Positions 12,460-47,852 of a DNA stretch of 64,000 nt are shown here, piece after piece. Below the pieces are notes generated by a model. It was not told the DNA's origin, made no database searches, and saw only the letters and a list, made by a program, of their open reading frames with translations. The position numbers were made by a program, and so were the translations under genes. The DNA is taken from contig CM097888.1 of the NCBI GenBank assembly GCA_044892525.1, positions 51,398,001 to 51,462,000 of the forward strand. Reading direction: 5' to 3'. Every line of letters starts with the position of its first letter. Position 1 is the first letter of the stretch. The DNA comes from Schmidtea polychroa. Lineage: Eukaryota.

Positions 12460-13549
12460 TCTTTATGCGACACGCTAGACCTCATTTTTGGTGATTAGTT
12501 AACGAAGTTTCCAATCAGAACCGATTTTCCGACATTTTCTTTTTATTAACATTCATGATTATGATACGTCGCCTCACACAATAGTAGTGAAATCATGAAA
12601 CTCTCTGAAATTCAGTTTGGTCAGTGTCATCATGGTATTTATCTCTTGTGATCATCTTCCCAAGACAAAATTTTCATTCTCATACGCTATCAGCGACGAA
12701 CCCGCCTCTGACGGATCCAACCGGCTGGTGCTTAAGACTTTCGAGGACCCCACCAGGAGAAATACACGAGGCATCTAACCATCGGGAACCCTCTGAACTT
12801 CCTTGGACATAAAAGGAAAATCTTTAAAATAAAATCCTGACTATCAAATAAATATGATAGTTATCACATATTACAAATATAAATTGTTGTGAGAAAAAGA
12901 GGTTTATCCTTTTCAAATTTTTAATATTTAGATATAATATACATGATTAGAAATAACATGACATAAATCAAAAAAGTTTACCAATTGAATTCTCAATGTT
13001 TCCCAAACGAAATATGAATTAATAATCAAAACAGACTTCGGACTAGAAGGTTGCTAAATAGTTGGAAGTTCTATAAAGATTAAAAAATGGCATTATTGAA
13101 ATTTCTTTAAGTAATTCTTACCTATAAAGATTAAAAATTGACATTAGAAATGTAATTGAGATGGCCTTATTTATAGTATTTCCACGACTGCTTCGTTCAA
13201 TTGGAATTAAGCAGGTGTGTATTTTGGTGAATTTCTATTTTATTTTCAAATTTAGCTTTATTTTCTGTGTTTTCTTATTTTTTATTTTTTTATTTAATTA
13301 ATTTCGTTTTGATCTGCTTTATTATATTTTACCTTGGTTAGATAATGGTTACCTTGGTGTCTTTTCTTAATTTATTTATTAATTTTTACTTTTAGTTATC
13401 ATACTTATTTATTTAAATCATTTATTTTTTATATATTGTTAAACCATTTTAAATTACATTTTCTAATGCGAAAATACTTATCTACGAAAATTTAGAATCT
13501 GTACTCGATAAAAAGAAAATGAAAAGAAATTTCTAATTCTTGCCCAACA
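12460..13549 (-). mobile_element. Truncated third copy (C) of the giant TG..CA solo-LTR-like family
   Basis: Starts TGTTGGGC at 13549. A-rich tract, CCAAT (13200-13204), TATAAATA (13168-13175) and a duplicated 24-nt mini-exon with a GTAAG donor follow, as in elements A and B. Left part is cut at the hAT end (12450). Confidence 0.65.
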
Positions 13550-14281: not shown

Positions 14282-16848
14282 TTTTATGCATTAAACAAAT
14301 TGTGACAAATTCAGGAAATCGAAAATCGTTTCAAACATTTTTTCATTTTAAAAAACAATAAAACAAATAATTTGCCATAAGAGTTTTCCACGTAAAAACA
14401 ATTCACGCTTGAATGCTTTTGCATCTTCACATTTACGCGATCAACCAATCAAATCATCGGAATTTATGCAATTTATATCAAATGCAATTTAATTGTTATT
14501 TTTACAAATTTAATAATGTCTAATTTTACGTTTCTAGATCTGAAAGCTCGTTGGAAATATGTTGACAGTCCTTGGGATTTATTAACAGCTTGTGAGGAAA
14601 TGAAGTTGAATAAATCAACAAGAAATACTCTCGTATTCTGTATATTTAGCCATATAATGGGCTTCTGGGCAGCTTACATCCTCCCCATAATTTCCCTATT
14701 TGGCATTATATCAAACATGATAACCATTTATATATTAAGTTCCAAACTCCATGACCGAACTCGTCAGTATATCTATCTGTCATTTATAGCTGGTTGTGAT
14801 TCGGTAAATATTATTTGTTACGGTTGGATTTGGATCTTTTTTGCTAAAGGATTACCATATGCTTCTTTTGGAAAGGTTTCTTTTTTCACTTATAACCAAG
14901 GGGAAATTTCATGCAAACTTCATCGCTACTTTATAGCAGCTATTTCTTGTTCTGCCAGTTCCATATTTCTGTTGGCATCAGTTGATAGGTGGTTTGCTAT
15001 TTTTTGGCCATTAAAATGTTTAAACATTCCTCTTAAACGAGCTTGGCAGTCTTCAATTGGAGTGATTATATCTAGCTTCATTCTAATGAGTCCATTTGCC
15101 ATCTATATGGGATACACTGAAATTGGGAATCAGAAAACTCTCTGTTGGATCAAAGTTTCAACTGATGAGCAAGGTTTGGCAACCTTTTTGCAAGTTTATA
15201 ATGTATTATTCTCATTTTGCGGATCCTTCCAAACTGTTGCAATTATTGTTGTCAATGTAGCATTGTTTTATCAAATAAATAAAGGACAACAATTAAGGGA
15301 TCAAATTAGAGCCGCAAATTGCTCTAATGTACGCAAGGAAATGTCTGCATGTGTCATTTTACTTGTATTATCTATATTGTATACAATTGGTTCGCTACCA
15401 ACGTCGATTTCCTTTATTTTGGCGTTTCTTATGCAGAATGAAACAGATCCAGAAGCTGAAGACCGTTTAAGATTTGCGTATAATATTGGTGATATTGGAT
15501 GGAACATTTATATGCTTCAACAATGCACAAATGGCTTGGTATTTTATTGGAAAATGCCGAGTTTCAAAGACGCCCTTCATCGGTTGCTTCATGTAAAAGA
15601 GGGACCAAAGCAAAATATTATTGTGACCACTTCTAATGCGTATATATCTAACAATTAGCGGGTTTCTCTGTATGAAGAAGGGGATGACTTTGCATGATTT
15701 TGCAATAAATTCATATAATTCATATTTACAAGCATTTTTAGCATTTAATAGAACAATTTCACAATAACGCATTTTTTGAATTAATTATCTTTTTGCAATT
15801 TTACGTTATTGTCATTTTGTATTGACATTCATTTACTGATAATATCATTATTTAGTTTATTTTCTCATTATTTTTATTTTTGATTATATATTTTTCATTT
15901 TCCTGGATCAAATAAATTATATTTGCGAACGAGGAGCCGCAAATAACAAACGCTTACTTTTTAATTTTTATGATTATGCGCATCGGACAGACTAAAATTA
16001 GTCAATGAGATTTCAGCTTTATTAATAATTTTTATTTTAAACTTTCTTTGACAATTAATTTGAACCATTTGATATGGTGATTAATTATTATGCGCGCATG
16101 GTGATCCCGTCTAAATACATTCGCAGTGAGGTGGCATGTTATTATGTATTATATAACTTGTGAATAGAACTGCCAGATAATCATATTTTAATTAAATGGC
16201 ATGACAAGATGCATAAATTTCTAACTAAATTGTTTGTGAATTGCTAAATGTTGTTTGAAAATGATCATATTTTACTAAATTACTTAAGGAATTACTATAT
16301 ATTTAAAATAACCATGTATTTTTCACTAAATTGGCTAAGAATTTGCCATGGTAAACAAATATAATTGCATGACTAATAAATTTGCGACATAAGTGCATAA
16401 TTAACTAGGACATTGCAATACATACGCATGGTTAACAAAGGCACTGAAAATATCATTATTGGATTTCGTCAAAGATGATTATAGCAGTAATATCAGAAGG
16501 TCAAGTCAAATATACCAGGAAATGGTAACCCCATAAAAATGATTTTAATTTAATTTGTTATTGAAAATTTATATTAAGGCCTTTTTAAAAATTTCAATTT
16601 TATAAGAAATCTGAAAATAAAATTACACAATTTAAACAAATAATAAAAAATTAAATACAAATCACTTCATTTAAAGAAATATATGATAATAAATGTTTAA
16701 GGAGGTACCATTTCCTGCTGTGTTTGGCTCGGGCCCATGCGCGTATGTAGGGGGGGGGGGGTTACTGGGGGGTTTACCCCCCCCCCATGATTCCAACAAC
16801 AATATAAAAAACTATAATTAATACATATATAAACTTAAAACAATTTAA
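14282..16848 (+). repeat. Arm 1 of a ~2.57-kb near-identical inverted duplication (partner 38674-41237)
   Basis: Reverse complement matches 38674-41237 through the GPCR, its flanks and the MITE end. Both arms stop at an N-gap at the same base. Confidence 0.9.
14516..15658 (+). CDS. Intronless orphan rhodopsin-like (class A) 7TM GPCR, 380 aa
   Basis: Seven hydrophobic segments, TM1 GxxxN, TM3 Cys (SCKLHRY) and DRW (DRY variant), TM6 SLP, TM7 NGLVFY. Confidence 0.9.
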   Translation: MSNFTFLDLKARWKYVDSPWDLLTACEEMKLNKSTRNTLVFCIFSHIMGFWAAYILPIISLFGIISNMITIYILSSKLHDRTRQYIYLSFIAGCDSVNIICYGWIWIFFAKGLPYASFGKVSFFTYNQGEISCKLHRYFIAAISCSASSIFLLASVDRWFAIFWPLKCLNIPLKRAWQSSIGVIISSFILMSPFAIYMGYTEIGNQKTLCWIKVSTDEQGLATFLQVYNVLFSFCGSFQTVAIIVVNVALFYQINKGQQLRDQIRAANCSNVRKEMSACVILLVLSILYTIGSLPTSISFILAFLMQNETDPEAEDRLRFAYNIGDIGWNIYMLQQCTNGLVFYWKMPSFKDALHRLLHVKEGPKQNIIVTTSNAYISNN

Positions 16849-22590: not shown

Positions 22591-23846
22591 TAAAAAGTTT
22601 TTTTACTTATATTATTTTGCTCTTTTTAGTCTTCTCAAATCTTACAACCGATCTTCTGCCAAAACCAATCTTTTTCATATGTGCATTTTTTACGCAGAAC
22701 ATATTTTTTCTCCTGGATCGCGACTTTTAATGAATTTTTCAGTAATGCAATACATAGATGGAATATAAAATTCCGTCATACTTGCGTTTTTCACCTTAAA
22801 CAGATCGGTTAAGTATAATTAAGTTCTGAAAGTAGTAAAATATTGTGTTGTCATAAAAAGCAAGCATGTATACAAAATTTCAGCGAAATTGGATTATTGA
22901 AAGTGCTACAAAATTCGATCGAAAGACTTGACCCGAACATACAAGAAACCAAGTTAAGAAAAGCGTGGTAAAAACTCTTTTTAGAAATGTCTCTTAAAAT
23001 CTAATGTTAAGTATTGTCTTTGGTTCTCTTTTCGTAACCCAACCGTATTTCCTGTCAAGTATTATGGCACCTTTTTTACAGCGCAATCGGTATTACTGAC
23101 TATTCTAGCTATTCTGGTAGAAAAGTACAAGACTGGCTGACACATACGAACCATTTATTGAAAAAAATGTAAAAATCACATTTTGCGAAAAATGAGTTAA
23201 ATAATAATAATTTTAAAGGAAATTGCAATTAAACAGATTTAATTAATTTTTCTGAAAAGGTTATTTTCTACTACTTTCAAAATAAATCACTGCTGGGGCA
23301 CCACTCTGTTGACCATCAATATTTCCATTTTCGTCCTAGGGGATGAGTGCCCATTTATGATTACGCTTATCGTTACTTTGTCAACCCTGAGTAGAGCCCC
23401 ACATAACCTGTACTCCAACATAGCACCTGTGAATTACTTCACGTTGGAAATGTGCTATGCCGACGAGACGCCAGTAAGCAGGTGAGCCCCTACCTTAGGA
23501 CTACTCCTTACTGAGGCCTCGACTTCCTACCTCTGACCGCCGATAGAAGGACTTACGTCTACTCAGTTCATCACCCCATTTCAACACCTTTCGTTTGGAT
23601 TGCACACTGATCAATACCTCTCGAATGCTAGAAACTGTTAACACTATTTCCCTAACTTCATGCCGAATCTTTTATAAAAAGAAAATATATCAGGACGAAA
23701 ACTATTTATTTTTTACATTGATATACAGAAAACATCGACGATTTACACAGCAGATATACAAGGATAAGAGAAACGCAAGAGTAAAAACGTGATTAGTTCG
23801 ATTTCAGATTTCTCCAGTGGATCATGTCAGGTTCACGGGAATGTTC

Positions 23847-24596
23847 TCACTTTTCCCACTCTGTATCTGCCAGCAGTTCTTCCAGGTCAAAGAATTCGGA
23901 GGCGTTTTCCTCCCATGTCACGCCGGCGGCTGAGATAATCCGTGCCGGAATTCCTGTCGTTAGATCGATGGATATATGCGAATTGTCAGTATTGATGGTC
24001 GTTCCCGTTGAGGGGTCGTTGGATTTCGTTGATGCTCGTTCGCGCTGCCTCTGCTTGCGCTTGACTCGAGATAATTGCTTACGCTTGGGTTTCGAAGTGG
24101 ACGGATTATTTTGTGATACAGCTGATGAAGACATGATATTGGGCTGTACTTTGCTAATCCTGGTGATGACAAGGTCCGGACATTTGGGAGAGAGCTCGGT
24201 CTCTACGCAATCGTGACAAGACTTCGTGAACGGAGATGAAGACTTGGCGGAGGTATCGTGATGCACGGGGAAGATGTTGTCTGCTTCATTTATCGGGATT
24301 TTGACAATTCGTCGCGTTGTTGCTGCTTGTAAATACACCTTGTGCAACGCTTCTGATTGTTCTTTTATCAGGCTTCTTTGTGCACGACTCTCAGAAATTA
24401 GAGCGTCACGACAATGCTCGCTTCGATATAATTTTTTATTGACTTCCTTCATTTGAGCGGGGGTAAACCAGGTACCCTCCAACTCGTCTATCTTCTTCTT
24501 ATAACGCCCTATCTGAGCTTGTAAGTCCTTGATTATCATATTCTTATCTGAGCAGGAAAAACAGGGCCGGAGAACAGGTTTTGTATTTGGTAGCAT
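23847..24596 (-). CDS. Uncharacterised 249-aa CxxC/coiled-coil protein of element A
   Basis: Intact ORF, about 52/80 identical to the 35348 ORF in the N-terminal domain. Acceptor TCTTCTTACAG 9 nt before the ATG; AATAAA at 23705-23710. Confidence 0.8.
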   Translation of the reverse strand: MLPNTKPVLRPCFSCSDKNMIIKDLQAQIGRYKKKIDELEGTWFTPAQMKEVNKKLYRSEHCRDALISESRAQRSLIKEQSEALHKVYLQAATTRRIVKIPINEADNIFPVHHDTSAKSSSPFTKSCHDCVETELSPKCPDLVITRISKVQPNIMSSSAVSQNNPSTSKPKRKQLSRVKRKQRQRERASTKSNDPSTGTTINTDNSHISIDLTTGIPARIISAAGVTWEENASEFFDLEELLADTEWEK

Positions 24597-26460
24597 GTCT
24601 GATAGCTGTAAGAAGAGATAAAACTAAATAGAATGAAACTAAATTTGCAAAGTCATCATTCCGACACAATCGTGGGTCTCTTTATTAGAACTTCCTACAG
24701 CAAGGAGACGGAGTCAACTAGCAAGAGGAACTCCCCCCCCCGACCATAAATCTTTATCCCTTTGCGATTTATTAGTTATAGGAAAATCAACTAGTAACAC
24801 ATACTGTTGCTTAACGAATGTAGTACCTTGTTGTTGAAAAAATGAAAATTCTATATTTGTGAAATTCGTGAAAATTAGGTTTTTCCTTGAAAATGTTAAA
24901 TCGTATTCAAGAGCTCAACGCCAAATATAAGACTACTTTACAAAAAGGAAATTATACAATATGAAGATTTGATAGATTTTTGCGATTAATCAATTTTAAT
25001 TAATTATTATTGGTGAATATTAAATTTAAAAGTTCTAAAATTTAGACCTACAACGTACAATCACACGCCATTCGTTATCTATGGTAAATTGCAATCCCTC
25101 AGTACTGATGACTGTTATCTAATAATATGAATACCACATGGTGTGTACCGGATGGAATCTCTCACTACAGCCATTTATCACGAATTTACCTAGTGTCAAA
25201 TCAAATATTCTGAGAAAAAGCTAATGGTAGCAACATATGGGAAATTCTCGGATAATGATATTAGATAATGCTGTATTGACGCTAATGAGTGTCCACATGC
25301 GAATTCTACTGCTGGAACTAGGACTACGTGTATTTGCGTGTGTGTGCATGCACGGGCGGGCAGCTGCTCTATGAAATTCTATCGGTTAGCGTTGTAGATT
25401 TGGATTTTTCAGATATTACTGCACTGAGTTGATTTCTATCGTACGCGAAAATTGAAAACACGAAATTCCCTCTCGTCGCTCGTTGGATATATTATTTTCG
25501 TGGATGATTTATGGAGCCATTTAGGACATATTTATCGATCTTTACTCTCTGACAATGATCATTTTGCATTTGCTCAACAGAAGCGTGTTTTATACACTGA
25601 CTCGTATGCAGGTAGTTCGTGAACATTTTTCATTTTATGTAATCTCAATTTTATGATATTGCTATATTTTATTAAATGGTTACCATACTACCGGAGTAAG
25701 TATCTTAACACGAGATTCATCATCAGAGCCAATTTCGAGTGGTCATTTCGAAAGGAAAAATTAAAAATCAGATAGATGATGTTTGCCCTACTGATAGAAT
25801 TGAAAGATCTGGATTTATAAATTTTCAAAATGCGAGAATTATGGAAAGATTGCAGATGCGAAGCATCTAGACTCGCTCATTCACTGTGAATCACCACTAC
25901 TACTTTTCCTATACATTAAAAACGATTTTGCTTCTTACTTTTGACTTTTCTATATGCATTTTAAGTGACCTTCAGCGTTTGGACCCGTGAAGAAGCCACC
26001 ACATTTCGGCCCAATCTAGCTGCGTGATTGAAAAACTTCATGTCCACCGGCTGAGCTCCCGAAGGTACCTCACACCATGACATGAAGTTTCTCAACTCCA
26101 CGTTACTCAAGAAGTTGAAAATCATAAACTAATAATTCATAAAGCTAATTATAAACTGTGAAAACTATTATAGGTACTGAAATCATTTACTTAATTACAA
26201 TCATTAATAGGGATCAAATGAAAAGAAAACTATTCAAATTAAAATTTTAATTATTCATTAAATAATCATAATTACTATTAACTTTAAAAACAAACAAAAT
26301 GTAGAATAAAATCTCCTTACTATCGAGTGTGGGCTTAGTCGAAAATATAGTAATCGTCTTTCAAAAATTGTCTGATGATTTCGGATCCTGTGGTTCTTCG
26401 AATATCGATTTCTACTGTTGATTATGCTTTAGCTTTGAATTGGTTGTGAGTCGCTGCTAT

Positions 26461-26590
26461 CTATGAAGTTTTTTGAATTAACCGTCTCATAATTTAAAGT
26501 TTCTTACCTATGAAGTTTTTTGAATTAACCGTGATTTTTATGATTTTGGTGCCTGCTTATATATCAATTTTTCATTTATGCGGACCAATC
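26461..26590 (-). promoter_or_regulatory. Element A promoter with duplicated 25-nt first exon and 47-nt mini-intron
   Basis: GATTGG, TATATAAG, then ACGGTTAATTCAAAAAACTTCATAG|GTAAG...ACGGTTAATTCAAAAAACTTCATAG| (repeats 26508-26532 and 26461-26485). Confidence 0.65.
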
Positions 26591-27935
26591 AAAATTGAGT
26601 ACCGCTTAATTTTTTGAATTAATTTGTTTTTTCCTATTTCTTTAGGTATTTTCCTTATTTTTCCTATTTTTATTATACCTTTTATTTATTTCTTAAATTC
26701 CTTATTATTTGTTGCATTTTTCGTTATCTTATTCGTCATCTTTTTACCTTATTTTTAATTTTCTCATTTTTATTTTTTGTTTTAATCCTTATATCGTATT
26801 TTATTGTTTCTTTTATGTCTTGACTTATTTATTTTAAAATTTGTTGTCTTATTTTATTTTATTCACATCCTATCTGTCTTAATTTCCGACGATTATATTT
26901 TCGACTTAGCCCAACATCACTCATACATATTTACTTCCTAAACAAATTTTTTGTTCATCAACTAGTATTTTGTTTTTTCATTTAATATGAATTTTCGGCA
27001 AAGACTTGTTTGAAAATTTTATTTGAAAACGGTAATGAAAAAATCCGTATTAACTATGCAACAAAATATTGATCGATAATCTAAAAAAGAAATGAAGATA
27101 AAAGAAAAAAAACATTTCACACCAAATATTTTTGAACAAAAGATTATCAGACTAACTCAAAACGAATTTTTGGAATTTTTAATCAACATCTATCTACCAC
27201 AGGGTGCAAATTTTAGGATTGATACAATATTTTTATTATTCAACTCGTTACACTCAAAGTAATCTCTTTTATTTTTCAGTATTTGCAAATAATCTACTTT
27301 AATTAAGAAAATGAAATAACTTATTTTCATTATTAATATCCTCTTTTTCAATTTTGGTCTGTAATTTATTATATCACTTTAGTAAAAGATCAAATATGAA
27401 TGTTGCTCACAAGTGTTTGTATTGTTCATAACTTAATTATTTTATACTCCTCGACCAGAATGACTAAACATTATTATTATATTGATAAATTTTATAATAC
27501 AAACCCGTTATTATAATCAAGAGTGAAAACAAGTGGTATTTAAAAAAATTACAATAGGCATAGACGAAGTGAATAAATAAATAAATTACTTTGCTCAAAT
27601 AAATCAAGCACAGACTATTTTCAATTTATTTTTCTTGATTTTTCTAAGTTTTTCAGAAATTCTGGTCATTGTCTTGATCAAATGGTCTATTTTGTTGAAC
27701 TATATATTTCAACGGGATAACAAAATTAACGTTTAATTGTTAATTTTCGAGCTATTTTCATTCATAATTTTATTTAGGGTTGCAAGTATTGCTTCGATGT
27801 TGACCCACAGAAAAAGAATTTTGATGTTATATAAAGACGGTGTAATAAAACATCTACTTACATCTACACAATATATTAAATTTATTTTAAGAAAATAAGA
27901 AAAAATAAAAATTCAAAATTCATCATACCATATAT

Positions 27936-32124: not shown

Positions 32125-32277
32125 GAATAAATAGTTAAACATACATGGCAATGATTTAATTATAAGATAACGCCAATCAAACATTTTTTTCACGATTAAT
32201 TTCGACAGTTTTCCTGTCATCATCAGGTGGGATATAATACTCATTAAATAAAGGATTTTAAACAAATTTAATTATAT
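32125..32277 (-). mobile_element. Inverted pseudo-LTR fragment of a Penelope-like element
   Basis: Reverse complement of 32232-32270 matches 37250-37287 (AATTTGTTTAAAATCCTTTATTTAATGAGTATTATAT), the 3' UTR of the GIY-YIG ORF. Contains a hammerhead motif. Confidence 0.75.
32191..32229 (-). ncRNA. Minimal type I hammerhead ribozyme of Penelope pLTR type
   Basis: Minus strand CAC-CUGAUGA-U-GACAG-GAAAA-CUGUC-GAA-AUUAAU-C-GUG: stem I CAC/GUG, stem II 5 bp, palindromic stem III AUUAAU, cleavage triplet AUC. Confidence 0.8.
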
Positions 32278-32776
32278 TGTTGGGCTAAGTTTTGAAGTAG
32301 AGAAAAACTGGGTTAAATCGGGAAACGAGCCGCAAAAAATATAAACGAAATATAATAAAAATAAATCCCCATCAAACCTCAATAATAAATAAGGAAACAA
32401 TAAAATACCCATAAAAAGAAATAAGAATAAATGATAAATAAATAAAGCCCTTAAGAATTAGAAATAGGACATAAGAGAAATGAGTTAAAGCACAATAAAT
32501 AAAGTAAAAATAGAATAAGCAAAAAGGTAAGAGAAAATAAACGAGAAATTAAAGCAATAAATAAAAAATAAAAATATCTTTAAGTTTAATTAAAACAAAA
32601 ATTGCATTATGATAAAGTAGCAGTGAACCCGCAGAAAAAATAGGAGAAAAATAAGAAAAATAGGAAAAATAAATAAAATAATAATAAGAAATAAGTTAAG
32701 TTATTAAAAGCTAATATATTATAATAAAAACATAAAATAATAATAAATAATAAAAATTACAACCTAACTAAGTCCT

Positions 32777-32892
32777 GATTGGACGGAAAATAGTATATAA
32801 GAAACGCTAAAAATCAGTAGAGTACCACTTTAATCAAAAACTCTACAGGTAAAATTTGTTAAGTTTGACCACTTTAATCAAAAACTCTACAG
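32777..32892 (+). promoter_or_regulatory. Element B promoter with duplicated 25-nt first exon and 44-nt mini-intron
   Basis: GATTGG 32777-32782, TATATAAG 32794-32801, ACCACTTTAATCAAAAACTCTACAG at 32824-32848 and 32868-32892, GTAAAA donor at 32849. Confidence 0.65.
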
Positions 32893-35347
32893 ACTCTACA
32901 GGTTTCAAGACTTTATTCACAAACTACTACAGAGGACTAATCCAAAGAAGACTAATTTGAATTGAGGAAGAAACATACAGCGAACTATTAACAGCATTAT
33001 TCCGGAAAACCTTAGCCAATTTAACCCAGTTATTTAATCTCAAGGTATGGTAGGATATTTTTAGGTTTGATTTTATGATAGATATAATGGAATTTAATAA
33101 ATATTTATAATTGATATTAAATTTTGTAAATAACAAGGAAAATTTGTTCAATAAATTTATTTAAAAACAGAACCTGCCTTTCTTCATGGTGCCGACGACT
33201 GTACCTTCTGATGATTTCAAGTATGATGCCAAATGGAGAGAGTAGCCCCGAGGAATATTATGATATGTAGCCAAGAGATGTTGCGAGGATATTGGATCAG
33301 GAGCAAGCGATAATAATGGATACGATGCCAATACTGTAAGGGAATATTGGGTTGGAAAATGAGAAAGCATCATACTTGGAACTCAGACGATATGGTCGTC
33401 GGTAATTTGATTCATTTACTTGATTATTATTTGTTCCATTTTTATTATTTATATCTGAAATTTGTTTTTAAATTGCTGAATGCGAAAGAGTCGACTGGTC
33501 CCTCGTGATCGTCCGAGAATGGCGGCAGAGATGATTGCCTTCTTGGGTGTGTTATGAGGGGTGTAGAGGCTCAGTAGGTTAGGATAACAGGCTGAAGGAT
33601 GGAATTTCTTCACCGAGCTCGCATCGTTCTTAGTAAGTTCCATAGCTTCAATAAGTCACCTCGATACTTCTAATAATAGCGGAGGAGATTTAAGTTGAGA
33701 GCCGAAGACAGTTCGGAGTTGAGATTGACAATTTCATCAACGTATTAAGAATCCACATAGTTCGGCGAAATTTCTTCATAACGGTCAACCCGTCAGTCGG
33801 GATAGTGAACGAGAATGTTGTCAACAAAGCTTGGAGTGTAAATCCAGTAAATCTCGTAGAGTATTGTTTTCCTCGGTATACTAGTAGAATCTGAACCGTC
33901 GATATGTTAGCGATGACACCCGTCGACGAATGTACTTTTAAGTTAAGTGATTAGCTTCGAATCGCTGATAAACATCGTCTTCCCTGAAAAGAATGTAAAT
34001 AAGTAGGAGAGGTTATCAGATTACTCACGGATAAATGACAGAAATCGCTGACAGATTTATCAATTGATCACTGACTGAATCGAGGAACCACGATAGGAGT
34101 TATCAGTGACTTGAGAAATGAAATGCCGGCAGATGATAACTGATCGAATTAAATGACCAACGAAGCCAGATAACACCGATAATAAATTTCCACGAGGGAT
34201 AATCTAATTGACGCGCGGGTAGACATTGTCTTGTACTGGCTGCGTAATGATCAAGGCAGATTAAAAATTCTAGCTTAGTTATTGCTCATCGTTTTACTAC
34301 GTACAATTCCAGGGTGATGCTCGTAGAACACTCAGTGATAATTCCAATATATTATGTAACTGCACACACCTACACACTCCATCGTGAATCGTCTCCCAGG
34401 AGGATAGCAGAGTACTCTTGGCATTGGAATTTGGCCGTGATGTCACGATTACATAGTAACCTACTCGTAATTCCCTGAGTTGGTAGGCTGGTGTGTATGA
34501 ACAACAGAGCAGATCGTCTCCACTGCGATTTAATACGACGTCGAATTTTCTCCACTATCACATAGAAATAGACACACATGAAAGCTCAAGGTGGAGATAC
34601 TCCAACAATGCATACCGACTCAGTTAATAAATATAAGAAAATGCACACATCTACAGGTAGGCGTCACTAGGGCGACAGAAGTAGCGCGATTTTTAAAAGA
34701 ATTTTTGGAATTTAAATTATAATATAATTAGCTAATAGTATATATTTAAAGTCCTTTATGTAAATTCGTAATCACAATGCGTCATAAGGAGAGATAAATT
34801 TTTCCTGCGTTCTAGCAATACGGAGTAGGTACAAATTAATAAACTGAAATCCCCAACAATCGGATGCTATTCTTTTCCATTGATTACGAACGTAAATATG
34901 TTTGACTATAGCAGCCGGCTAAAATGCAACGAGTATGAGTTATCCGACCCGAGGGTAAAGATAGATTTTTCATCGAACCAGTTAAAATCGAGGATTCCCC
35001 GTTTTCTACTCTCCATCCTCTTGAATCAATAAATCGATCGGAATGTTGTTTCCTAAATGAGTGAATGAGGAGTGTTGAATTGTGTGAAAACAAGTTGTTT
35101 TATTGTATGCTGTGGCGTGGTATGATGAGTGAAATCTTTGAGTTTAGTGTCTCGATAGAATTTGGAACTAGATATATTTTAACCGTTAAAACGGATTACT
35201 AGAGAAAACTTAGCTGAGACATTAAAAAACATGAAATTTATGAATTAAGACACTTCGTGAAAATTACAGAATTATAACTAATGAATTCTTGTACTGGATA
35301 CCTTAATAAGTATCGCAATTCGGTTTGAACCATGATTAATTTTCTAG

Positions 35348-36109
35348 ATGACAACACCATCCAATAACGCCCAAGAACTTCGTCCGTGTTTCTCTTGCGC
35401 TGACAAGAACTCGGACATCTCTCAACTTCATTTATATATAGGGGCCCTCAAGAAGAGGATAGATCTTTACGAAGGAACGTGGTTCTCCCCGCCACAGATG
35501 AAGGAGGAAAAGGCTAAGATCCTCAGGTTAGAACATTGTAGGGACAGCCTACTAGAAGAAAGCCGATGCCAAAGGCTCACAATAAAAGCACAATCAGAAG
35601 CCCTCCATAAGGTCTACACGGAGGCAGAAATAGCAAAGCGGGTACGCGAATATCCCGTATTGGATGGATCGAATGTCTTTCCTCTCCATCACCAGTCATC
35701 TACCACTCCCACCTCAGCTTGTCGAGGGCACGGTTCCCATCTACCGCCCATCCCAGCCCCAGTGCTGTCAGGATACTTACCTATGAAAGGCGGTCCATCT
35801 GACCCAATTCTGGTCCCGATCCTAGTGGCACCCACAGTATCTACTGCTGTTGGAGGAAATCCGCCATCACGCAAACGCAAACACCCAACTAGGGCCGAGA
35901 AGACTAAGAAACGAAGAAATGCAATGAAGGCGCTCGAGGCTTCTTTGTTCGCAGCGCAGACGACAATAGCAGAGATATCCACCACTCATACGATTCCCTC
36001 GAAAGAAGTTTTCCGTATCATTCCAGCTAACGGCATCAAGTTTATCTCGGATTGTAGATTGCCGGTAGACATCGACGAGTTAATTGCCGACGGAGAAAAC
36101 TTCAACTAA
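35348..36109 (+). CDS. Uncharacterised 253-aa CxxC/coiled-coil protein of element B
   Basis: Intact ORF homologous to 23847-24596. TTTCTAG|ATG acceptor context; AATAAA at 36308-36313. Confidence 0.8.
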   Translation: MTTPSNNAQELRPCFSCADKNSDISQLHLYIGALKKRIDLYEGTWFSPPQMKEEKAKILRLEHCRDSLLEESRCQRLTIKAQSEALHKVYTEAEIAKRVREYPVLDGSNVFPLHHQSSTTPTSACRGHGSHLPPIPAPVLSGYLPMKGGPSDPILVPILVAPTVSTAVGGNPPSRKRKHPTRAEKTKKRRNAMKALEASLFAAQTTIAEISTTHTIPSKEVFRIIPANGIKFISDCRLPVDIDELIADGENFN

Positions 36110-36400
36110 AACGGTTCGCGAGTGATCCTGAATGTATTTCGAGTCGTGAATTGACTGATAAACTTCGTTAATATTGTGCATCCTAACCGTCCATATGATA
36201 TTGTATTAATAAGTGTGATGATGTTTGTTTATTTTCATTTCGGTATTAATATATTTTGTCTATTTGGTTCTGTTTTATAAAGATTTTCATATGTTTGGTT
36301 TTTTGAGAATAAAATGGTTCAGTATTACGGAAGGAAAGCTAGTAGGCTAACGGTCGTTCCCTTGGACCAGGATCGAACCAAGACTGAAACATGAATAAGG

Positions 36401-36645
36401 GTAAGTCCTTCTAAGGCACCAGTGAACCTGAACCGCGAGCGGGCTATCAGTAGTCCTAAAATAGGGGCTCACCTGTTAGTCAGCTCCGACCCGTATGGGC
36501 ACTACCAACGTGGAACATCATCACGGGCTCATGCGTGGGAATATGTAAATGATCATTTGGCGTATGCATGGGAGGTGTCTGAGCTAACCAATGCGGTCGG
36601 TATGATAATGGTTGTGTAAGTTTTCTTCTCCCTCATATGCCAACA
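36401..36645 (+). ncRNA. Putative structured cis-RNA module at the 3' end of element B (homologue at 23291-23556, minus strand)
   Basis: Blocks GTAAGTCCTTCTA, AGTAGTCCTAAnnTAGGGGCTCACCTG and CCAACGTG are shared with element A. The flanking helices differ in sequence but keep their pairing. Confidence 0.55.
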
Positions 36646-37287
36646 ATATATAAAAAAAATTTGCCGTACTCAGAAGGCTTTAAGGATTATAAAGTGAAGA
36701 TAAGAAAGCAGTTAGGGAATTTAAACTATAGGATAGTGTCAACTTCATGGAAAGTACGCAATATGTTTATTAATAAGTCAAAAACTCCGGTTGAATTGTG
36801 TTCCGATCTCGTTTATCAGTTTACATGTAATGGATGTAATGCTACATACATTGGAGAGACTTCCCGTCATCTCTGTATTCGAGCTCGAGAACATTGTAGA
36901 CCGAAGTCTTTGACCCATATTGGTGAGCACAATAAGGGCTGTAAAATTAAAATAGGTATGTCTGATTTTAAAATTTTATTAAAAAACTTCGATAATTATT
37001 TGGAACGTGTGATTTGTGAGGCGTTGTTGATAAAATCATTAAATTCGAAAATTAATGTGCAGAATGCAGTAAATACTTGTGTGTTGAGTGTTTTTAAATA
37101 AGCTTTTGTGTATTGTATGTATTGATTGTTGTGTTAAATTAAATAATGAATAAAAATTTTTTAAATTGTTAAACTAAAATTTTAAATGTTAAAGTTTTAA
37201 AAATAATATTTTTTAAAAAATGAAAAAAATTTTTTTTTATATATAATAAAATTTGTTTAAAATCCTTTATTTAATGAGTATTATATT
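36646..37287 (+). mobile_element. 5'-truncated Penelope-like element: GIY-YIG endonuclease ORF (to 37101) plus 3' UTR/pLTR
   Basis: LVYQFTCNGCNATYIGETSRHLCIRAREH...EALLIKSLNSKIN. The listed ATG at 36637 comes from the end of element B, so the ORF start is chimeric. Confidence 0.88.
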
Positions 37288-38673: not shown

Positions 38674-41237
38674 TTAAATTGTTTTAAGTTTATATATGTA
38701 TTAATTATAGTTTTTTATATTGTTGTTGGAATCATGGGGGGGGGGGGGTAAACCCCCAGTACCCCCCTGCGTACGCGCATGGGCCCGAGCCAAACACACC
38801 AGGAAATGGTACCTCCTTAAACATTTATTAGCATATATTTGTTTAAATGAAGTGATTTGTATATAATTTTTTATTATTTGTTTAAATTGTGTAATTTTAT
38901 TTTCAGATTTCTTATAAATATGAAATTTTTAAAAAGGCCTTAATAGAAATTTTCAATAACAAATTAAAATAAAATCATTTTTATGGGGTTACCATTTCCT
39001 GGTATATTTGACTTGACCTTCTGATATTACTGCTATAATCATCTTTGACGAAATCCAATAATGATATTTTCAGTGCCTTTGTTAACCATGCGTATGTATT
39101 GCAATGTCCTAGTTAATTATGCACTTATGTGGCAAATTTATTAGTCATGCAATTATATTTGTTTACCATGGCAAATTCTTAGCCAATTTAGTGAAAAATA
39201 CATGGTTATTTTAAATATAGAGCAATTTCTTAAGTAAGTTAGTAAAATATGATCATTTTCAGACAAAATTTAGCAATTCACAAACAATTTAGTTAGAAAT
39301 TCATGCATCTTGTCATGCCATTTAATTAAAATATGATTATCCGACAGTTCTATTCACAAGTTATATAGTACATAATAACATGCCACCTCATTGCGAATTG
39401 ATTTAGACGGGTTCACCATGCGCGCATATTAATTAATCACCATATCAAATGGTTCAAATTAATTGTCAAAGAAAGTTTAAAATAAAAATTATTAATAAAG
39501 CTGAAATCTCATTGGCTAATTTTAGTCTGTCCGATGTGCATAATCATAAAAATTAAAAAGTAAGCGTTTGTTATTTGCGGCTCCTCGTTCGCAAATATAA
39601 TTTATTTGATCCAGGAAAATGAAGAATATATAATCAAAAATAAAAATAATGAGAAAATAAACTAAATAATGATATTATCAGTAAATGAATGTCAATACAA
39701 AATGACAATAACGTAAAATTGCAAAAAGATAATTAATTCAAAAAATGCGTTATTATGAAATTGTTCTATTAAATGCTAAAAATGCTTGTAAATATGAATT
39801 ATATGAATTTATTGCAAAATCCTGCAAAGTCATCCCCTTCCTCATACAGAGAAACCCTCTAATTGTTAGATATATACGCATTAGAAGTGGTCACAATAAT
39901 ATTTTGCTTTGGCCTCTCTTTTACATGAAGCAACCGATGAAGGGCGTCTTTGAAACTCAGCATTTTCCAATAAAATACCAAGCCATTTGTGCATTGTTGA
40001 AGCATATAAATGTTCCATCCAATATCACCAATATTATACGCAAATCTTAAACGGTCTTCAGCTTCTGGATCTGTTTCATTCTGCATAAGAAACGCCAAAA
40101 TAAAGGAAATCGACGTTGGTAGCGAACCGATTGTATACAATATAGATAATACAAGTAAAATGACACATGCAGACATTTCCTTGCGTACATTAGAGCAATT
40201 TGCGGCTCTAATTTGATCCCTTAATTGTTGTCCTTTATTTATTTGATAAAACAATGCTACATTGACAACAATAATTGCAACAGTTTGGAAAGATCCGCAA
40301 AATGAGAATAATACATTATAAACTTGCAAAAAGGTTGCCAAACCTTGCTCATCAGTTGAAACTTTGATCCAACAGAGAGTTTTCTGATTCCCAATTTCAG
40401 TGTATCCCATATAGATGGCAAATGGACTCATTAGAATGAAGCTAGATATAATCACTCCAATTGAAGACTGCCAAGCTCGTTTAAGGGGAATGTTTAAACA
40501 TTTTAATGGCCAAAAAATAGCAAACCACCTATCAACTGATGCCAACAGAAATATGGAACTGGCAGAACAAGAAATAGCTGCTATAAAGTAGCGATGAAGT
40601 TTGCATGAAATTTCCCCTTGGTTATAAGTGAAAAAAGAAACCTTTCCAAAAGAAGCATATGGTAATCCTTTAGCAAAAAAGATCCAAATCCAACCGTAAC
40701 AAATAATATTTACCGAATCACAACTAGCTATAAATGACAGATAGATATACTGACGAGTTCGGTCATGGAGTTTGGAACTTAATATATAAATGGTTATCAT
40801 GTTTGATATAATGCCAAATAGGGAAATTATGGGGAGGATGTAAGCTGCCCAGAAGCCCATTATATGGCTAAATATACAGAATACGAGAGTATTTCTTGTT
40901 GATTTATTCAACCTCATTTCCTCACAAGCCGTTAATAAATCCCAAGGACTGTCAACATATTTCCAACGAGCTTTCAGATCTAGAAACGTAAAATTAGACA
41001 TTATTAAATTTGTAAAAATAACAATTAAATTGCATTCGATATAAATTGCATAAATTCCGATGATTTGATTGGTTGATCGCGTAAATGTGAAAGTGCAAAA
41101 GCATTCAAGCGCGAATTGTTTTTACGTGGAAAACTCTTTTATGGCAAATTATTTGTTTTATTGTTTTTTAAAATGAAAAAATGTTTGAAACGATTTTCGA
41201 TTTCCTGAATTTGTCACAATTTGTTTAATGCATAAAA
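38674..41237 (-). repeat. Arm 2 of the inverted duplication; includes the MITE end (38781) with the same TSD
   Basis: Reverse complement of 14282-16848 with scattered substitutions. The GGCCCGAG TSD copy is at 38782-38789. Confidence 0.9.
39859..41001 (-). CDS. Intronless orphan 7TM GPCR, near-identical to 14516-15658
   Basis: 380 aa with four substitutions seen (MKLN/MRLN, AGCD/ASCD, KMPS/KMLS, KEGP/KERP). Confidence 0.9.
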   Translation of the reverse strand: MSNFTFLDLKARWKYVDSPWDLLTACEEMRLNKSTRNTLVFCIFSHIMGFWAAYILPIISLFGIISNMITIYILSSKLHDRTRQYIYLSFIASCDSVNIICYGWIWIFFAKGLPYASFGKVSFFTYNQGEISCKLHRYFIAAISCSASSIFLLASVDRWFAIFWPLKCLNIPLKRAWQSSIGVIISSFILMSPFAIYMGYTEIGNQKTLCWIKVSTDEQGLATFLQVYNVLFSFCGSFQTVAIIVVNVALFYQINKGQQLRDQIRAANCSNVRKEMSACVILLVLSILYTIGSLPTSISFILAFLMQNETDPEAEDRLRFAYNIGDIGWNIYMLQQCTNGLVFYWKMLSFKDALHRLLHVKERPKQNIIVTTSNAYISNN

Positions 41238-42359: not shown

Positions 42360-42645
42360 TTATTCTCAAGGTCGATGATAACAGATCAAATTGATGATTT
42401 CATTGATTATGAATGTATTCCAGTGTTGGCAATCTGTTTATAATGAGAATTGCTTCTTTGAATCTGACATTTTCTTTGGATGTTTCCATTGGCTACGATT
42501 TTCATTGAAATATTTTTTCTTTCCTTTCTTGGCTGAATTGTTGGAGATGTCTGTTTACCGATGATTTTCCACCAGGATCTAGATGTTCTTTAACTCTTTG
42601 GTGCAAGGTCCTGATTGTACTTCCAATGTATATTTCCTTGCATAA
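42360..42645 (-). pseudogene. Second Penelope-like GIY-YIG remnant, split by the gypsy insertion (upstream part 47853-47937)
   Basis: Joining the flanks over one TSD copy gives ..IMCN(L/V)CKEIYIGSTIRTLHQRVKEH; upstream reads ENCQTPKDMCFRKNIVY. Confidence 0.8.
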
Positions 42646-42873
42646 TGTTAATAATAACCAGTTAATAATCTAGAAATAGTTATTTTTAATACAAAATGCA
42701 AAATACAAATTATTGCTCAAATCTGGTATTATTAAAACACCCGATTTAAATGGCGAATTAATTAATTAAATAATAATGATAATTATGCGTGCCAGCTTTT
42801 ATACTTATTATACTTTTTCTTATAATATAATATATATTTTATTTATAAATTAATTATTTAAATATCCCTAACA
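42646..42873 (-). repeat. 3' LTR of the gypsy element (228 bp)
   Basis: TGTTAATAAT...CCCTAACA on the plus strand, preceded by the PPT on the minus strand. Confidence 0.97.
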
Positions 42874-45800
42874 TCTCCCCTGTTTAAAAGATTTTAGCCA
42901 TTCAACGTTGCGGATTATAATTTTCCCATCTCTGTCTTGTAATTCATAACTATTTGCATGGATCTTTCTAACAATTACGAAAGGTCCTATATATCGGTCC
43001 TCCTCTTTTTTTCTCAAATCTACTTTAACTAAAACTTCTTCATTTATATCGAATTCTCGGTGTATTCGGTTTTCATTTTTATAATTTAAATTTCTTTGTT
43101 TTGATTGCACTTCCTCCACTATTTTACTTCTATCGTTGTATATTCTTTTATTATTGTTCCATTCTCTAGATATCCGAAAACTAAATACTGCTTCTGATGG
43201 ACTCTTTCCAGTTGTGCTTTGAATGGTAGCATTTAAAGTAAACTCAATTTCAGGTAACACTTCAACCCAATTTCTCTTAAGTTTATCTCTTAATGATGTA
43301 CTGATAAAATCTCGTATTGTTCGAAATTGTCTTTCAATCAAACCATTAGTGTTATGATGATAAGGGCTAGAAAATTGTAGCTGTATATTGTGATTCTTAG
43401 CCAACTCTTTTATCAAGTTAGACTCAAATGTTTTTCCACAATCAACATGAATAATTCTCGGTGCCCCGTATTTTAATATCCAGAATTTCACAATAGTATC
43501 CGCTGTAGTTTTTTCGTCCTGCTTTGCTACTGCTGTCAACGAAATGTATCGACTACACATATCTATAATTCCCAAAATATATTTCTTTCCATGAATGTTT
43601 GCCTGCAAAGGTCCACAAAAATCTATCGCTATAACCTCAAATGGTTCCGCCACTTGTGCTTTTACAATTAGTTCTTTTGTTTTTGTTGTCAATGTTTTTC
43701 GTTTCTGGCATATTTCACAACTTTGAATATATTGAGTCGCGATTGTATTTAATTCCTCCATATCGTAATTAACTTTTATATAATCGATTACCTTCTTGCA
43801 TCCAGCGTGACACAACATTTTGTGCATCTCTTTGACAAATTCTATTCTATTTACTTTTGGAATCCAAATTTTATTTTCTCTTGTTAAAATTAAATCTTCG
43901 ATGATTTTAAATCTTGTAGTCTCATTTTTATCTATTGCTTTTCTCATATGTTCTATCTCTTCATTACCTTTTTGCCATTGCAATCCATGTTTAGTGGCTG
44001 TCATTGTCAGCAATCTGGTTTTTACTTTCTCTGTCTTGGCATCTTCATGGATTTCCATACACTGTGTACATTTCCCACATTTATCTCTCGATAATGCGTC
44101 AGCGTTCGAATGGTCAATTCCTTTTCGATATTTAATATCCATATCTAAACTACTCAAGAAATTTATCCATGTCTGAAATTGTGCCGTTATAGGTTTTTTT
44201 GTTGTCATCATAAATGTTATAGCCTTGTGATCCGTTCTTAGCTGGAATCGCTTGCCGTAAAGATAGTGCTTAAAATGCTGTGCAAAGTAATAAATTGCTA
44301 AAAGTTCCTTTCTCGTGATACAGTATCCTATTTCATGTTTACTCATCGTATGTGAACCATAGGCAATAACACGTTCATTACCTAGATCATCAATCCGTGA
44401 CAAAACAGCTCCTATAGTGTCGAAACTGGCATCCGTATCCAAAATAAATTCTTTCTCATAATCAGGATATATTAGAACTGGTGTAGTTGATAGTGCTTTC
44501 TTCAATTCCTCAAAACTTTCTTGACATTCTTTTGACCAAACTAACTTATCTTTATTGTTTCCGCACATCGATTCTAATATTCTTGCGAATTTTGAATAAT
44601 TTTTTATAAATTTTCTGTAATAATTACACAGTCCTAAGAAACTCCTCAATTGCTTTAAACATTTTGGTCTTTGAAACCCCTTTATTGCTTCTATTTTAGC
44701 TTCATCGACTTTAACACCTTCGCAAGTTATAATGTGACCAAGAAATTTTGTTTCCTTCACCAAAAATTTGCATTTTACAGGATTTATTCTCAATCCTGCT
44801 TCTTTTATTTGTTCTAATACTTCATTTATTCTTTTTATATGATCTTCTTTGTCTTTTGAGAATATTAAAATATCATCTAAATACACTATAGCAATTTTCC
44901 ATAATAATTTTCCTAAAACCATATTCATTAATTTTTGGAATGTAGCTGGAGCAGCAGCAATCCCAAATGGCATCCTATTAAAGCAGAACTGCCCAGATCT
45001 TGTTGAGAACGCTGTCTTTTCTTGCGAATTTGCTGTCAATTCAACCTGATAATATGCGCTTCCCAGATCAACGGTGCTAAAGTACATTGATCCATTTAAT
45101 GAATCTAACATCTGTTCGATATTAGGCATTGGGAAGATTTGTCTTTCTGTCATTTTATTTAAACTTCTAAAATCTAAACATAATCGAATATCATTTTTCT
45201 CCTTCTTCCAGACACATACTAACGGCGTATTCCACGGTGAGTCACACTTCCTAATTATGCCGTTTTCTTCCAAATTTTTAATAGCTTCTTCAATCTTTTC
45301 TTCTAGGTGGGCTGGCTGTCTTCTTGGGTTCAAATGGATTGGTCCTTCAACAGTTTTAATATCATGCTTTAATAGATTGGTTTTGCCTATATCCCACTTA
45401 TCAATCATAAATACTTCGGCATTTTTTTTTATTACTCCATAAAGTTTGTTGTCACACCTTAATCCTATAAATTCTATTGCTCTTTTAAATCGAAGTTTAT
45501 CACTCGTTCTTTTCCCAAATTTGGCTTCAATGTTGCATAGTTCCATATTATTATATTCGCTTGCATTTTCGATGTTATTTCCGATAACTTTCATTAGTTT
45601 TATGTCAAACCTACGTAATAAATCGATTCCTCCAATTATCGATGGAGATACATTTTCAACTACTACAAAAACAATATTTTCTTCTCTACTTCCTATATTT
45701 ATTCTAAGCTTGATTCTTCCCAAAGTTTTTAATGGACTACCATTTGCGCACCAGATTTTGTCTCCGTGTTCGTTTATAACTGGATTTCCGATCTCCTTTA

Positions 45801-46555
45801 TAATCGAACTATCAATCACATTCATTCTAGCTCCTGTATCCAACAAACAATTCTTAAAGTAATTATTTATGCCTATTATTACACTTGGACGTCCACCCAT
45901 TTTATCATAAACAATATTATACTCATCCTTCTTCAAATATGTTTCACTTCTATATTGTATTTTACAGTCACATGTATCAAATATTTTATCCTTTTCATTA
46001 TGTACATAAATCATATTTTCTGGTTTTTTTAATTTTTTTACGTCATCTATCGATAAAATCTGAGTACAATTATTTTTACATTCTTTTTTATTATCGTCAT
46101 CAATTTTTAGTTTTTCAAAATTGTTTTCATTAGGCATATTTAAAATAATTGCATCATGAATATCCGTAACTTTATTTTTTACACTTTCTATTATATCACA
46201 TTGATTCGCTTTTTTAAAATTTGTTTCTAGCTCATTATTTTTTTCCAACTATATCGATATTTCCTACAATTCTACTGCTACCATTATTTCTGATTACATT
46301 ATTCTCATCCAACATTTTATTATTTACTTTATTTAAATTATCTACTAAAGGACTTATACTATTCACGTTATTATTAATATTTTCTACATTATATACATTA
46401 TTTACAAAAGGAATTATACTATTCACTTTACTACTAATACTATTAATATATTTATATTTACTTATACAATTATACTGGCATACACAATGGTCATTATTAC
46501 CCATTAATTCATTGCTCCGATCATCTCGCCCAACGATGGAGCTTCTTGGTTTGGG
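42868..46555 (-). CDS. pol: Pol (protease, RT, RNase H, integrase), reached by -1 frameshift; one-base break in an A7 run at 46238-46244
   Basis: LLDTGA, YLDD, LDTDAS, HHCC, DDE (IDFCG, VDCG, IER) and GPF motifs in 42868-46248. That ORF starts at TTG just after a TAG. The bridging -1 ORF 46235-46573 fuses to it if one A is removed. Confidence 0.88.
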
Positions 46556-47625
46556 TAGTCTTCGTCTTGGCATGAAATCTTTTCGTCGTTCTCGGCTTGA
46601 TCAGTCTGAAACGCGGCTACCTGTGTCCGTCTCGGTGGTCCCCGCTCGTCTGCGTATCTTCTTCTGTCTGTCTGATTCCAGCATCGAAATCGTAAGTGGC
46701 CTCTTCTACCGCATCCTGAGCACGATATTGATGGGCATTCTCTTCTGTTGTGTCCAATATCTTTACACGCAAAACATCTCATCTCTGCATTCTGTGCTCT
46801 CTGATTGCACTCTCTGGATTGGTGCCCTTCTTTTCCACATTGGAAGCATTTCTGAACCCTTGGTTTCCGACATTCTCGACTCATATGACCCACCTCCTGA
46901 CAATTCCAACATGTAATAACTGGTCTGCTTCTAACCGGCATTTCTCTTTGTTGGAATCTGTTCTGGAAATTATCGGCTTTCATCTTCGGTGTTGAATCAT
47001 ATCTGTGTTCACTTCGTTGTGAATTTGTAAAAGTTCTGCTTTGGTTCTGTCTATCGGCAAATCCTTGTCTCGTCTTGACAATACTCGCAAACGTTTCCTT
47101 CCTTCTATTCAAAACTGAAATTCCGGATACTTCAATGTTTATATCATCGACCTTCTTTATCACTCCTTTTATTTCGTCGACGCTCATCGCATCTCTCATC
47201 TTTATTTCTTTCTGTGTATCCTTGTCTTTGATACAATGGACCAAAAAATATGACATTAATTCTTTCTTGTCCCATTTGTGCTTCAGAACTTGGTCAACCA
47301 TCTTTTCTATTTTTTCGAAATATACTGGAGCAGTATCATCGTTCTTTTCATAATTGCAGAGGGTTAGAAAATCCCCTATCAACGTCGTTGGTTTCTTGAA
47401 AGCCTTTTTCAATCTGTCTTCAAAACAAATTTCATTTTCTTCTATTGCTTCATAAATTGGCAACAATTCTCTTGCGATTAAACATTTGATCATCATACTT
47501 TGGCTGGATTGTTCTAGTCCACATAATTGGAAATACCTCTTGCATTTTCCAATAAAAACGTCTACATCGACGCTGCCATCGTAAATATCCGGGATCATTT
47601 TATTGATCATTGCCAGGGTCGCCAT
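46504..47625 (-). CDS. gag: Gag with four CCHC zinc knuckles
   Basis: CWNCQEVGHMSREC, CFQCGKEGHQSREC, CFACKDIGHNRREC and CSGCGRRGHLRFRC. N-terminal IPDIYDGSVDVDVFIGK capsid-like start. Confidence 0.93.
   Translation of the reverse strand: MATLAMINKMIPDIYDGSVDVDVFIGKCKRYFQLCGLEQSSQSMMIKCLIARELLPIYEAIEENEICFEDRLKKAFKKPTTLIGDFLTLCNYEKNDDTAPVYFEKIEKMVDQVLKHKWDKKELMSYFLVHCIKDKDTQKEIKMRDAMSVDEIKGVIKKVDDINIEVSGISVLNRRKETFASIVKTRQGFADRQNQSRTFTNSQRSEHRYDSTPKMKADNFQNRFQQREMPVRSRPVITCWNCQEVGHMSRECRKPRVQKCFQCGKEGHQSRECNQRAQNAEMRCFACKDIGHNRRECPSISCSGCGRRGHLRFRCWNQTDRRRYADERGPPRRTQVAAFQTDQAENDEKISCQDEDYPNQEAPSLGEMIGAMN
46514..46555 (-). promoter_or_regulatory. -1 programmed ribosomal frameshift signal
   Basis: C CCA AAC heptamer in the gag frame (46549-46555), 6-nt spacer, then stem-loop GCUCC-AUCGUU / GAUGAU-C-GGAGC. 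Confidence 0.75.
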
Positions 47626-47852
47626 GTTAATAATAACCAGTTAATAATCTAGAAATAGTTATTTTTAATACAAAATGCAAAATACAAATTATTGCTCAAA
47701 TCTGGTATTATTAAAACACTCGATTTAAATGGCGAATTAATTAATTAAATAATAATGATAATTATGCGTGCCAGCTTTTATACTTATTATACTTTTTCTT
47801 ATAATATAATATATATTTTATTTATAAATTAATTATTTAAATATCCCTAACA
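47625..47852 (-). repeat. 5' LTR of the gypsy element (228 bp)
   Basis: Identical to 42646-42873 except CACCCG/CACTCG, followed by the PBS. Confidence 0.97.

Follow-up and report, generated by a model that had tools for sequence, protein, structure and literature searches.

Introns that are spliced from the genomic RNA of a retroelement are expected to be lost. Arkhipova reportedly described in 2003 intron-bearing Penelope-like elements, retroelements that keep introns through an RNA stage. Penelope-like elements are not LTR elements, and their intron retention is usually ascribed to unspliced templates. Among LTR elements, planarians carry Burro, giant gypsy-like retroelements, according to the parts of PMC6431247 considered here; in those parts, an LTR mini-intron, an LTR repeat, a second LTR intron and an LTR ORF are not mentioned. 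We analysed a stretch of 64,000 nucleotides (hereafter the window) that contains three LTR copies, A, B and C, each with a short repeat downstream of a TATA box. The first and second copies of the repeat are called r1 and r2.

Giant gypsy LTRs in the window

An earlier note on this DNA had described, in all three copies, a 24–25-nt repeat that starts about 30 nt past the TATA box and closes a 44–51-nt segment ending in AG, and had placed it in an LTR. Every coordinate of A, B and C was right, and so was the LTR label: B and A are solo LTRs with a TSD, and C is a truncated LTR. The features are as follows.

32278..36645, plus strand: copy B, solo LTR assigned to a Burro-type gypsy element, TG...CA ends, TSD ATAT
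32778..32802, plus strand: promoter of B, ATTGG (which we take to be a reverse CCAAT-like box) and TATA (at 32794), recognized from sequence and common to 74 genomic copies
32824..32848, plus strand: r1 of B, predicted first exon with the putative start site, ending in AG and followed by GTAAAA
32849..32892, plus strand: predicted mini-intron of B, 44 nt, with a unique part (32849-32867, including a final G) and then r2
32868..32892, plus strand: r2 of B, identical to r1, holding a branch-like TTAAT and the AG
32893..32901, plus strand: extra 9-nt partial repeat of B, 3' of r2
33045..35347, plus strand: intron 2 of B, GTATGG...TTTTCTAG, its end adjoining the ATG of the ORF; deleted exactly in both LTRs of the pair L222/L223
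35348..36109, plus strand: LTR ORF of B, 253 aa, of no known family
36308..36406, plus strand: AATAAA 3' of the ORF (36308), a candidate poly(A) site, and a GTAAG donor-like site (36401)
26916..23291, minus strand: copy A, solo LTR, 3.6 kb, TSD GTGA, with a homologous ORF at 24596-23847
26461..26563, minus strand: promoter region of A, with TATA at 26563, r1 (26532-26508) identical to r2 (26485-26461) and a predicted 47-nt intron (26507-26461)
13071..13549, minus strand: copy C, truncated LTR (5' portion) from an older related family
13071..13175, minus strand: promoter region of C, with TATA at 13175, r1 (13145-13122) differing from r2 (13094-13071) by 2 mismatches and a predicted 51-nt intron

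From the T of TATA to the start of r1 the distance is 30 nt in B, 31 nt in A and 30 nt in C, and GTAA directly follows r1 in all three copies. Certain subfamilies alone have GT 3' of r2, and A, B and C lack it. The 9-nt partial repeat of B is exact in three copies and differs from the repeat by one change in a related subfamily. Scanning the 64-kb window for 24-nt repeats with at most 2 mismatches at a lag of 40–56 found the repeats of A, B and C, one (ATT)n microsatellite and nothing else, and 30 of 30 block shuffles of the window lacked any such repeat.

Copy B is 95–96% identical over its whole length to the 4,241-bp LTR of a full-length element, E1. In its own genome (781 Mb), B matches repeat pairs about 26 kb apart, and two such elements, E1 and E2, were examined. 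The two E1 LTRs are 99.9% identical to each other and flanked by ATAC/ATAC; the element spans 2782-33428 of the joined stretch, with an internal region of 22.2 kb. In E1, E2 and the element carrying L224, a primer-binding site that starts with TGG, presumably of the tRNA-Pro type, lies 7 nt past the 5' LTR in gag–pol sense. A conserved motif sits just 5' of the 3' LTR, where the polypurine tract test found no clear purine run. All long internal frames of E1 lie on the same strand as the promoter, and Pfam gave, in order, gag, CCHC knuckles, a fusion-glycoprotein domain, protease, reverse transcriptase (RT), RNase H and an integrase zinc domain, followed by ankyrin, RING and MATH. The fusion domain (PF24664, E = 2e-70) is upstream of the protease, RT, RNase H and integrase zinc domains in a single 2,883-aa frame. 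An antisense promoter, with which the intron would never be spliced in genomic RNA, was ruled out, as the promoter and gag–pol are on one strand.

Like Burro in the consulted parts of PMC6431247, these elements are about 30 kb long with a 22-kb internal region, multi-kb LTRs and a gag with CCHC knuckles, and they carry a fusion-glycoprotein domain in frame before the protease, RT, RNase H and integrase, together with ankyrin, MATH and RING domains. The size and the in-frame fusion domain match the planarian Burro elements of that account. The elements differ from Burro in having RING and MATH downstream of pol and in that Pfam did not find BIR, BCL2 or dUTPase in the 10 ORFs scanned. Copies A, B and C therefore fit LTRs of giant (~30 kb) Burro-type gypsy elements, a sequence-based assignment made by size and domain content as described for Burro. 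On this basis the host would be planarian-like.

The LTR consists of about 550 nt of A-rich U3, TATA, r1, the predicted mini-intron with r2, exon 2, a second intron of 2.2–2.3 kb, the 253-aa ORF, AATAAA and a further ~330 nt. The ORF (35348-36109 in B, 24596-23847 in A) encodes about 250 aa with an N-terminal CxxC, and in B its ATG lies at the intron 2 acceptor. Pfam gave no family for the B protein and one sub-threshold match for A; the homologue search was empty, no metagenome loci were found and Atlas matches were below 0.9. Of 12 relatives of C that were fetched, 3 carry this ORF in their LTR, the closest being 49% identical (E = 1e-36). The ORF has at least 150 genomic matches, the majority with an open frame, so solo LTRs may express it. 

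In the E1 LTR there is no AATAAA in 466-871, and a candidate occurs at 3905. A GTAAG donor-like site lies 90–160 nt past AATAAA near the 3' end of the LTR in families A, B and D (36308-36406; L224:4052; L225:4217). In HIV, a downstream donor suppresses the 5' poly(A) site; by analogy, the GTAAG site could suppress the 5' poly(A) site here. One U3 (L031:2782-3330) contains 13 AATAAA hexamers within 470 nt, all of which transcription of the genomic RNA has to pass in the 3' LTR.

Copy B is inserted in a truncated Penelope-like fragment (GIY-YIG, weak Pfam match; 32232-32277 and 36646-37286), a 46-nt end of which is inverted on the other side of the B LTR. The GIY-YIG frame lies almost wholly beyond the LTR end (Pfam match residues 77–128), and the fragment is a separate neighbour. 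A Penelope-like carrier of the repeat was ruled out, as the repeat sits in true LTRs of gypsy elements. Elsewhere in the window are an ordinary small gypsy element with 229-bp LTRs (42645-47852), in which the window scan found no such repeat; four intronless rhodopsin-type GPCR frames (14396-41121); an inverted duplication with 97.7% identity (14282-16848 and 38674-41237); a beta-TrCP-like exon with a D domain and F-box (8293-9024, minus strand), with copy C, hAT-like fragments and gypsy fragments upstream of it; and a tandem array with a unit of about 290 nt (6910-8162).

Mirrored repeats across the genome

We surveyed all 74 matches to the promoter pattern upstream of r1 (set B), the first 30 of 211 pattern matches plus 38 loci picked mostly as LTR pairs (set A), and 38 LTRs picked by their ORF, of which the 32 with a promoter in the fetched stretch were kept and 6 dropped. 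An r1, a GT–AG segment of 44–56 nt and an r2 were present in 145 of these 174 LTRs, with r1 identical to r2 in 133. With 26 added BLAST-picked A loci (4 duplicates removed), whose selection is biased towards the intron, r1 equalled r2 in 153 of 171 repeat-bearing LTRs, representing 35 distinct identical types, and the other 18 carried mismatches; these counts overstate the number of independent events, as copies share ancestry, LTR pairs are not independent and several loci (L021/22, L015/16, L146/152 and L257/258 among them) represent duplications, either segmental or of the assembly. Substitutions, homopolymer indels and a +1 A-to-G change were all mirrored between r1 and r2. The mean r1–r2 distance in family B was 0.16 within copies versus 2.07 between copies, and in the first 30 A loci it was 0 versus 4.8. 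Permuting haplotypes never reached the observed match (0 of 10,000 in each of three sets). The earlier observation that the repeats agree within copies but not between them, which implied maintenance, holds family-wide.

GT followed r1 in 171 of 171 repeat-bearing LTRs, and the segment was 44–56 nt long in all. Its AG acceptor is shared with r1 by construction, and a branch-like YTAAY is present in 29 of the 35 repeat types; set against the planarian branch consensus and intron size peak, the segment has the sequence features of a spliceosomal mini-intron. TATA lies a fixed 30 nt from r1 in set B and 31 nt from it in 55 of 56 A loci, compared with 74–87 nt from r2, and r1 starts at a pyrimidine-A step. 

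The LTR pairs bear on when the matching arises. Among 41 pairs, the segment was in both LTRs in 36, in neither in 3 and in one in 2. The r2 junction was the same in both LTRs in 36 of the 36 pairs in which both have the segment, so the junction predates integration. A change in r1 found in L227 only, compared with its partner L226, was not matched in the r2 of L227. The shared junctions and this unmirrored change argue that matching arises at replication and not later in the chromosome. In one LTR (L012:1594-1700, minus strand), r1 is of one repeat type and r2 of another, which may have come about in one round, by transfer from one co-packaged RNA to another, or through one mutation at a later time.

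The bases before r2 carry scars. The base before r1 was G in 0 of 92 junction types, whereas the base before r2 was G in 34 of 92, compared with 7% G within the intron, and in family D some elements have T and others G at this position although they are otherwise nearly identical. In a subfamily of 15 LTRs that share a single repeat type, the 6 nt preceding r1 are uniform, whereas those preceding r2 occur in eight forms. Leftover repeat starts of at least 3 nt (3–9 nt) were present before r2 in 23 of 92 types, compared with a shuffle mean of 2.9 and maximum of 11, and before r1 in 1 of 92; on sequence they look like slipped transfers onto r2. Bases common to the regions upstream of r1 and r2 were weakly enriched (16, with a shuffle mean of 7.5 and a maximum of 17). 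A record of start-site heterogeneity before r2 was considered and set aside, as the cases are suggestive but within the shuffle range. In HIV-1, about 5% of rounds yield a T-to-G change immediately 5' of the start site through cap copying, according to the excerpts of PMC12172438 considered. The G at position −1 of r2 matches cap copying as reported there.

We also compared the repeat with the sequences on its two sides. In ten B-set LTRs, identity to E1 was 93–95% across positions 1-621/622, where r2 ends, and 74–87% from there on; as set B was chosen by its U3 sequence, similar U3 is favoured in this comparison. Judged from these identities, the U3, r1, intron and r2 of family B are moved as a single block onto lineages about 25% diverged. 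The partial rho of r1 plus the intron start was 0.70 with U3 and 0.08 with the sequence after r2; the same block test was ambiguous in family A (0.53 versus 0.48). Several repeat types occur with one and the same downstream type, and r1 and r2 match in almost all of these copies. In the first mapping, 11 of the 21 significant pairs had a change-point between +67 and +89. A narrower mapping interval for B and D gave a blurred picture (46 of 53 over +8 to +89), and the change-points of family A were scattered (6 of 34 at most 15 nt from the start site, 2 at +60 to +95). Just past r2, the start of exon 2 holds relic repeats of other subfamilies in L132, L133, L143 and L116, and in L116 also another intron start, in which GG replaces GT; the relics are probably traces of earlier expansions.

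One pair of LTRs (L222/L223, TSD CTTA) lacks intron 2 (2.2 kb) exactly from donor to acceptor in both LTRs, and keeps the mini-intron in the 5' LTR but not in the 3' LTR. The exact loss indicates that LTR transcripts are spliced and then reverse-transcribed, and RNA processed at intron 2 thus yielded DNA still carrying the mini-intron. In another pair (L216/L217), both LTRs hold a triple repeat with 3-nt spacers, the upstream two repeats sharing a variant that is absent from the third. A segment too short to be spliced would be expected to give such an arrangement when carried through the same transfer, and plain tandem slippage fits too.

The parser demanded GT after r1, and for this reason the 29 of 174 LTRs without r2 were rechecked; no hidden second repeat was found in them, and by eye most are clean joins of the repeat to exon 2. 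For most of the B-set LTRs lacking r2 there is a closely related copy with the intron, a sign of repeated loss, and intron-less copies are common in the old C family. Restoration of the mini-intron thus appears to leak, with losses scattered among the copies. Its persistence in most young copies suggests selection for the mini-intron.

Proposed restoration of a spliced intron and other explanations

From the architecture and orientation of the LTRs, their mirrored variants, the scars and the exact loss of intron 2 in one element, we infer a start site at r1, splicing of the mini-intron and its retention at the 3' end. Transcription would start at r1 and the mini-intron would be removed, giving a capped r1 joined to exon 2, and the 3' end of the same RNA would keep U3, r1, intron and r2 unspliced, perhaps through splicing only next to the cap. 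Cap-dependent splicing is a possible reason why the 3' copy escapes. Strong-stop cDNA would terminate with sequence complementary to r1, in many cases plus a base that is extra or copied from the cap, and would anneal to r2, from which synthesis would continue across the intron, r1 and U3, rebuilding the intron. In each round r1 would overwrite r2, and errors would be left just 5' of r2, inside the intron, so that the junction between promoter and start would stay clean. The intron could be lost through transfer onto r1, through splicing of the 3' end or by later deletion between the repeats. 

We consider this account, start at r1, splicing and transfer of strong-stop cDNA onto r2 of an unspliced 3' end, to be quite likely. 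The earlier note had proposed such a self-restoring intron: mirrored variants, scars confined to r2, the family B blocks and L222/L223 favour it, and its expectation that few copies would lack the duplication was borne out only in part, given the 29 LTRs without r2. The fuller statement, which we hold to be fairly likely, is that the U3/R boundary is split, with the start at r1 and the transfer at r2; that a spliced intron is regenerated every cycle; that the first exon, by overwriting r2, renews its own branch point and acceptor; and that transfer errors are diverted to the intron, away from the promoter.

The same DNA product would arise with no splicing at all if unspliced RNA started at r1 and RT routinely slipped from r2 to r1 during strong-stop synthesis before transfer onto r2. 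RT is known to delete sequence between direct repeats, longer stretches included. A 3-nt case is reported in the excerpts of PMC12172438, and the 2 discordant pairs among 41 indicate that slips between r1 and r2 happen here. Slippage would, however, have to occur in most rounds, and it leaves unexplained the GT after r1 in every repeat-bearing copy, the YTAAY in 29 of 35 types and the 44-nt floor; the other LTR intron, intron 2, is moreover spliced in vivo. We therefore regard slippage as an improbable explanation. 

Transcription could instead start at r2, with the scars as ordinary errors at a U3/R junction and r1 as a promoter-side duplicate matched by some other conversion. A normal U3/R junction at r2 would give cap-derived G scars and breakpoints near r2, and RNA from this site would equal the spliced form. 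TATA is nevertheless spaced for r1 (30–31 nt) and not for r2, r1 begins at a pyrimidine-A step, the family B breakpoint is the 3' end of r2, and r2 tracks r1 and U3 but not exon 2, one downstream type carrying several mirrored repeat types. A start at r2 also offers no mechanism for exact mirroring, and we find it quite improbable. Homogenization of the repeats within the chromosome once an element has inserted, whether through gene conversion or unequal exchange, gains something from the discordant pairs and the many intron-less C-family copies, and deletion between repeats probably does occur; but the single-LTR mutation in L227 is unmirrored, mismatches are kept in 18 of 171 copies, and the scars are common to both LTRs in all 36 pairs. 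Such homogenization does not predict the G bias or the polarity of the scars, and the matching ends at the start site and at the AG. This makes it a highly improbable source of the matching.

Spliced RNA joining r1 to exon 2 has the same sequence as unspliced RNA from r2, so ordinary reads cannot tell the two apart. No RNA run was listed as containing the E1 LTR. The contigs of four runs compared with a family D LTR (X5, X6, X7 and X1; that X5–X7 represent RNA is a guess) gave no start or end peaks, contigs being unable to show starts, and had no joint at either intron among the joints listed. Masking of the donor by U3 structure was not seen when the LTRs of three families were folded (paired probability of the donor 0.44/0.52, 0.65/0.66 and 0.57/0.53).

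Relation to known systems

The element is of a known kind, Burro-type, and the part that would be new is the proposed replication twist. The literature searched contains no description of an LTR repeat or a restored intron; Grohme 2018 and Lee 2026 with their supplements, which may describe the LTR, were outside its scope. The parts considered of PMC13465017, PMC11410931, PMC5542766, PMC12910113, PMC8532177 and PMC13238120 hold nothing on the LTR.

If the proposed account is true, the mini-intron is a natural, heritable exception to the loss of introns spliced from a retroelement genome, and a 25-nt duplication that allows both splicing and restoration would be a new twist on LTR replication. 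Should splicing and restoration hold, the repeats are a clear example of reverse transcription driving concerted evolution, and the genome would record the start site, cap copying and the transfer site. The question bears on the passage of 25–30-kb Burro RNAs through host processing, where splicing close to the cap might help them to be exported or guard them against premature polyadenylation. With hundreds of natural copies available, a self-restoring intron is testable.

Several steps have counterparts elsewhere. As in minus-strand transfer of HIV-1 in the passages of PMC12172438 considered, a G lies directly before the transferred 5' end, and as in the Tosmo elements described in part of bioRxiv 2022.12.06.519325, a recombination breakpoint lies near the transfer site. 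In the consulted parts of both accounts the scar is at the start site, whereas here it lies 44–56 nt past the predicted start, in the GT–AG segment; the part rebuilt from the 3' end thus includes exon 1 and the intron. Going by Tosmo, the breakpoint of an ordinary LTR is expected at the start site. 

The foamy virus donor in R resembles the donor here in being present in both LTRs and recognized at the 5' end only, as far as the relevant sections of PMC3694450 go. There it suppresses polyadenylation and is hidden by RNA structure, whereas folding gave no such hiding here, and no repeat or restoration is described in those sections. The engineered split-intron retroviral vectors of PMC3182074, in the parts considered, are alike in that a donor placed in the 3' LTR reaches the 5' LTR by reverse transcription, which creates a working intron. 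Those vectors are artificial and one-way, and the intron removes the packaging signal and stops spread, whereas the natural design proposed here would repeat each round.
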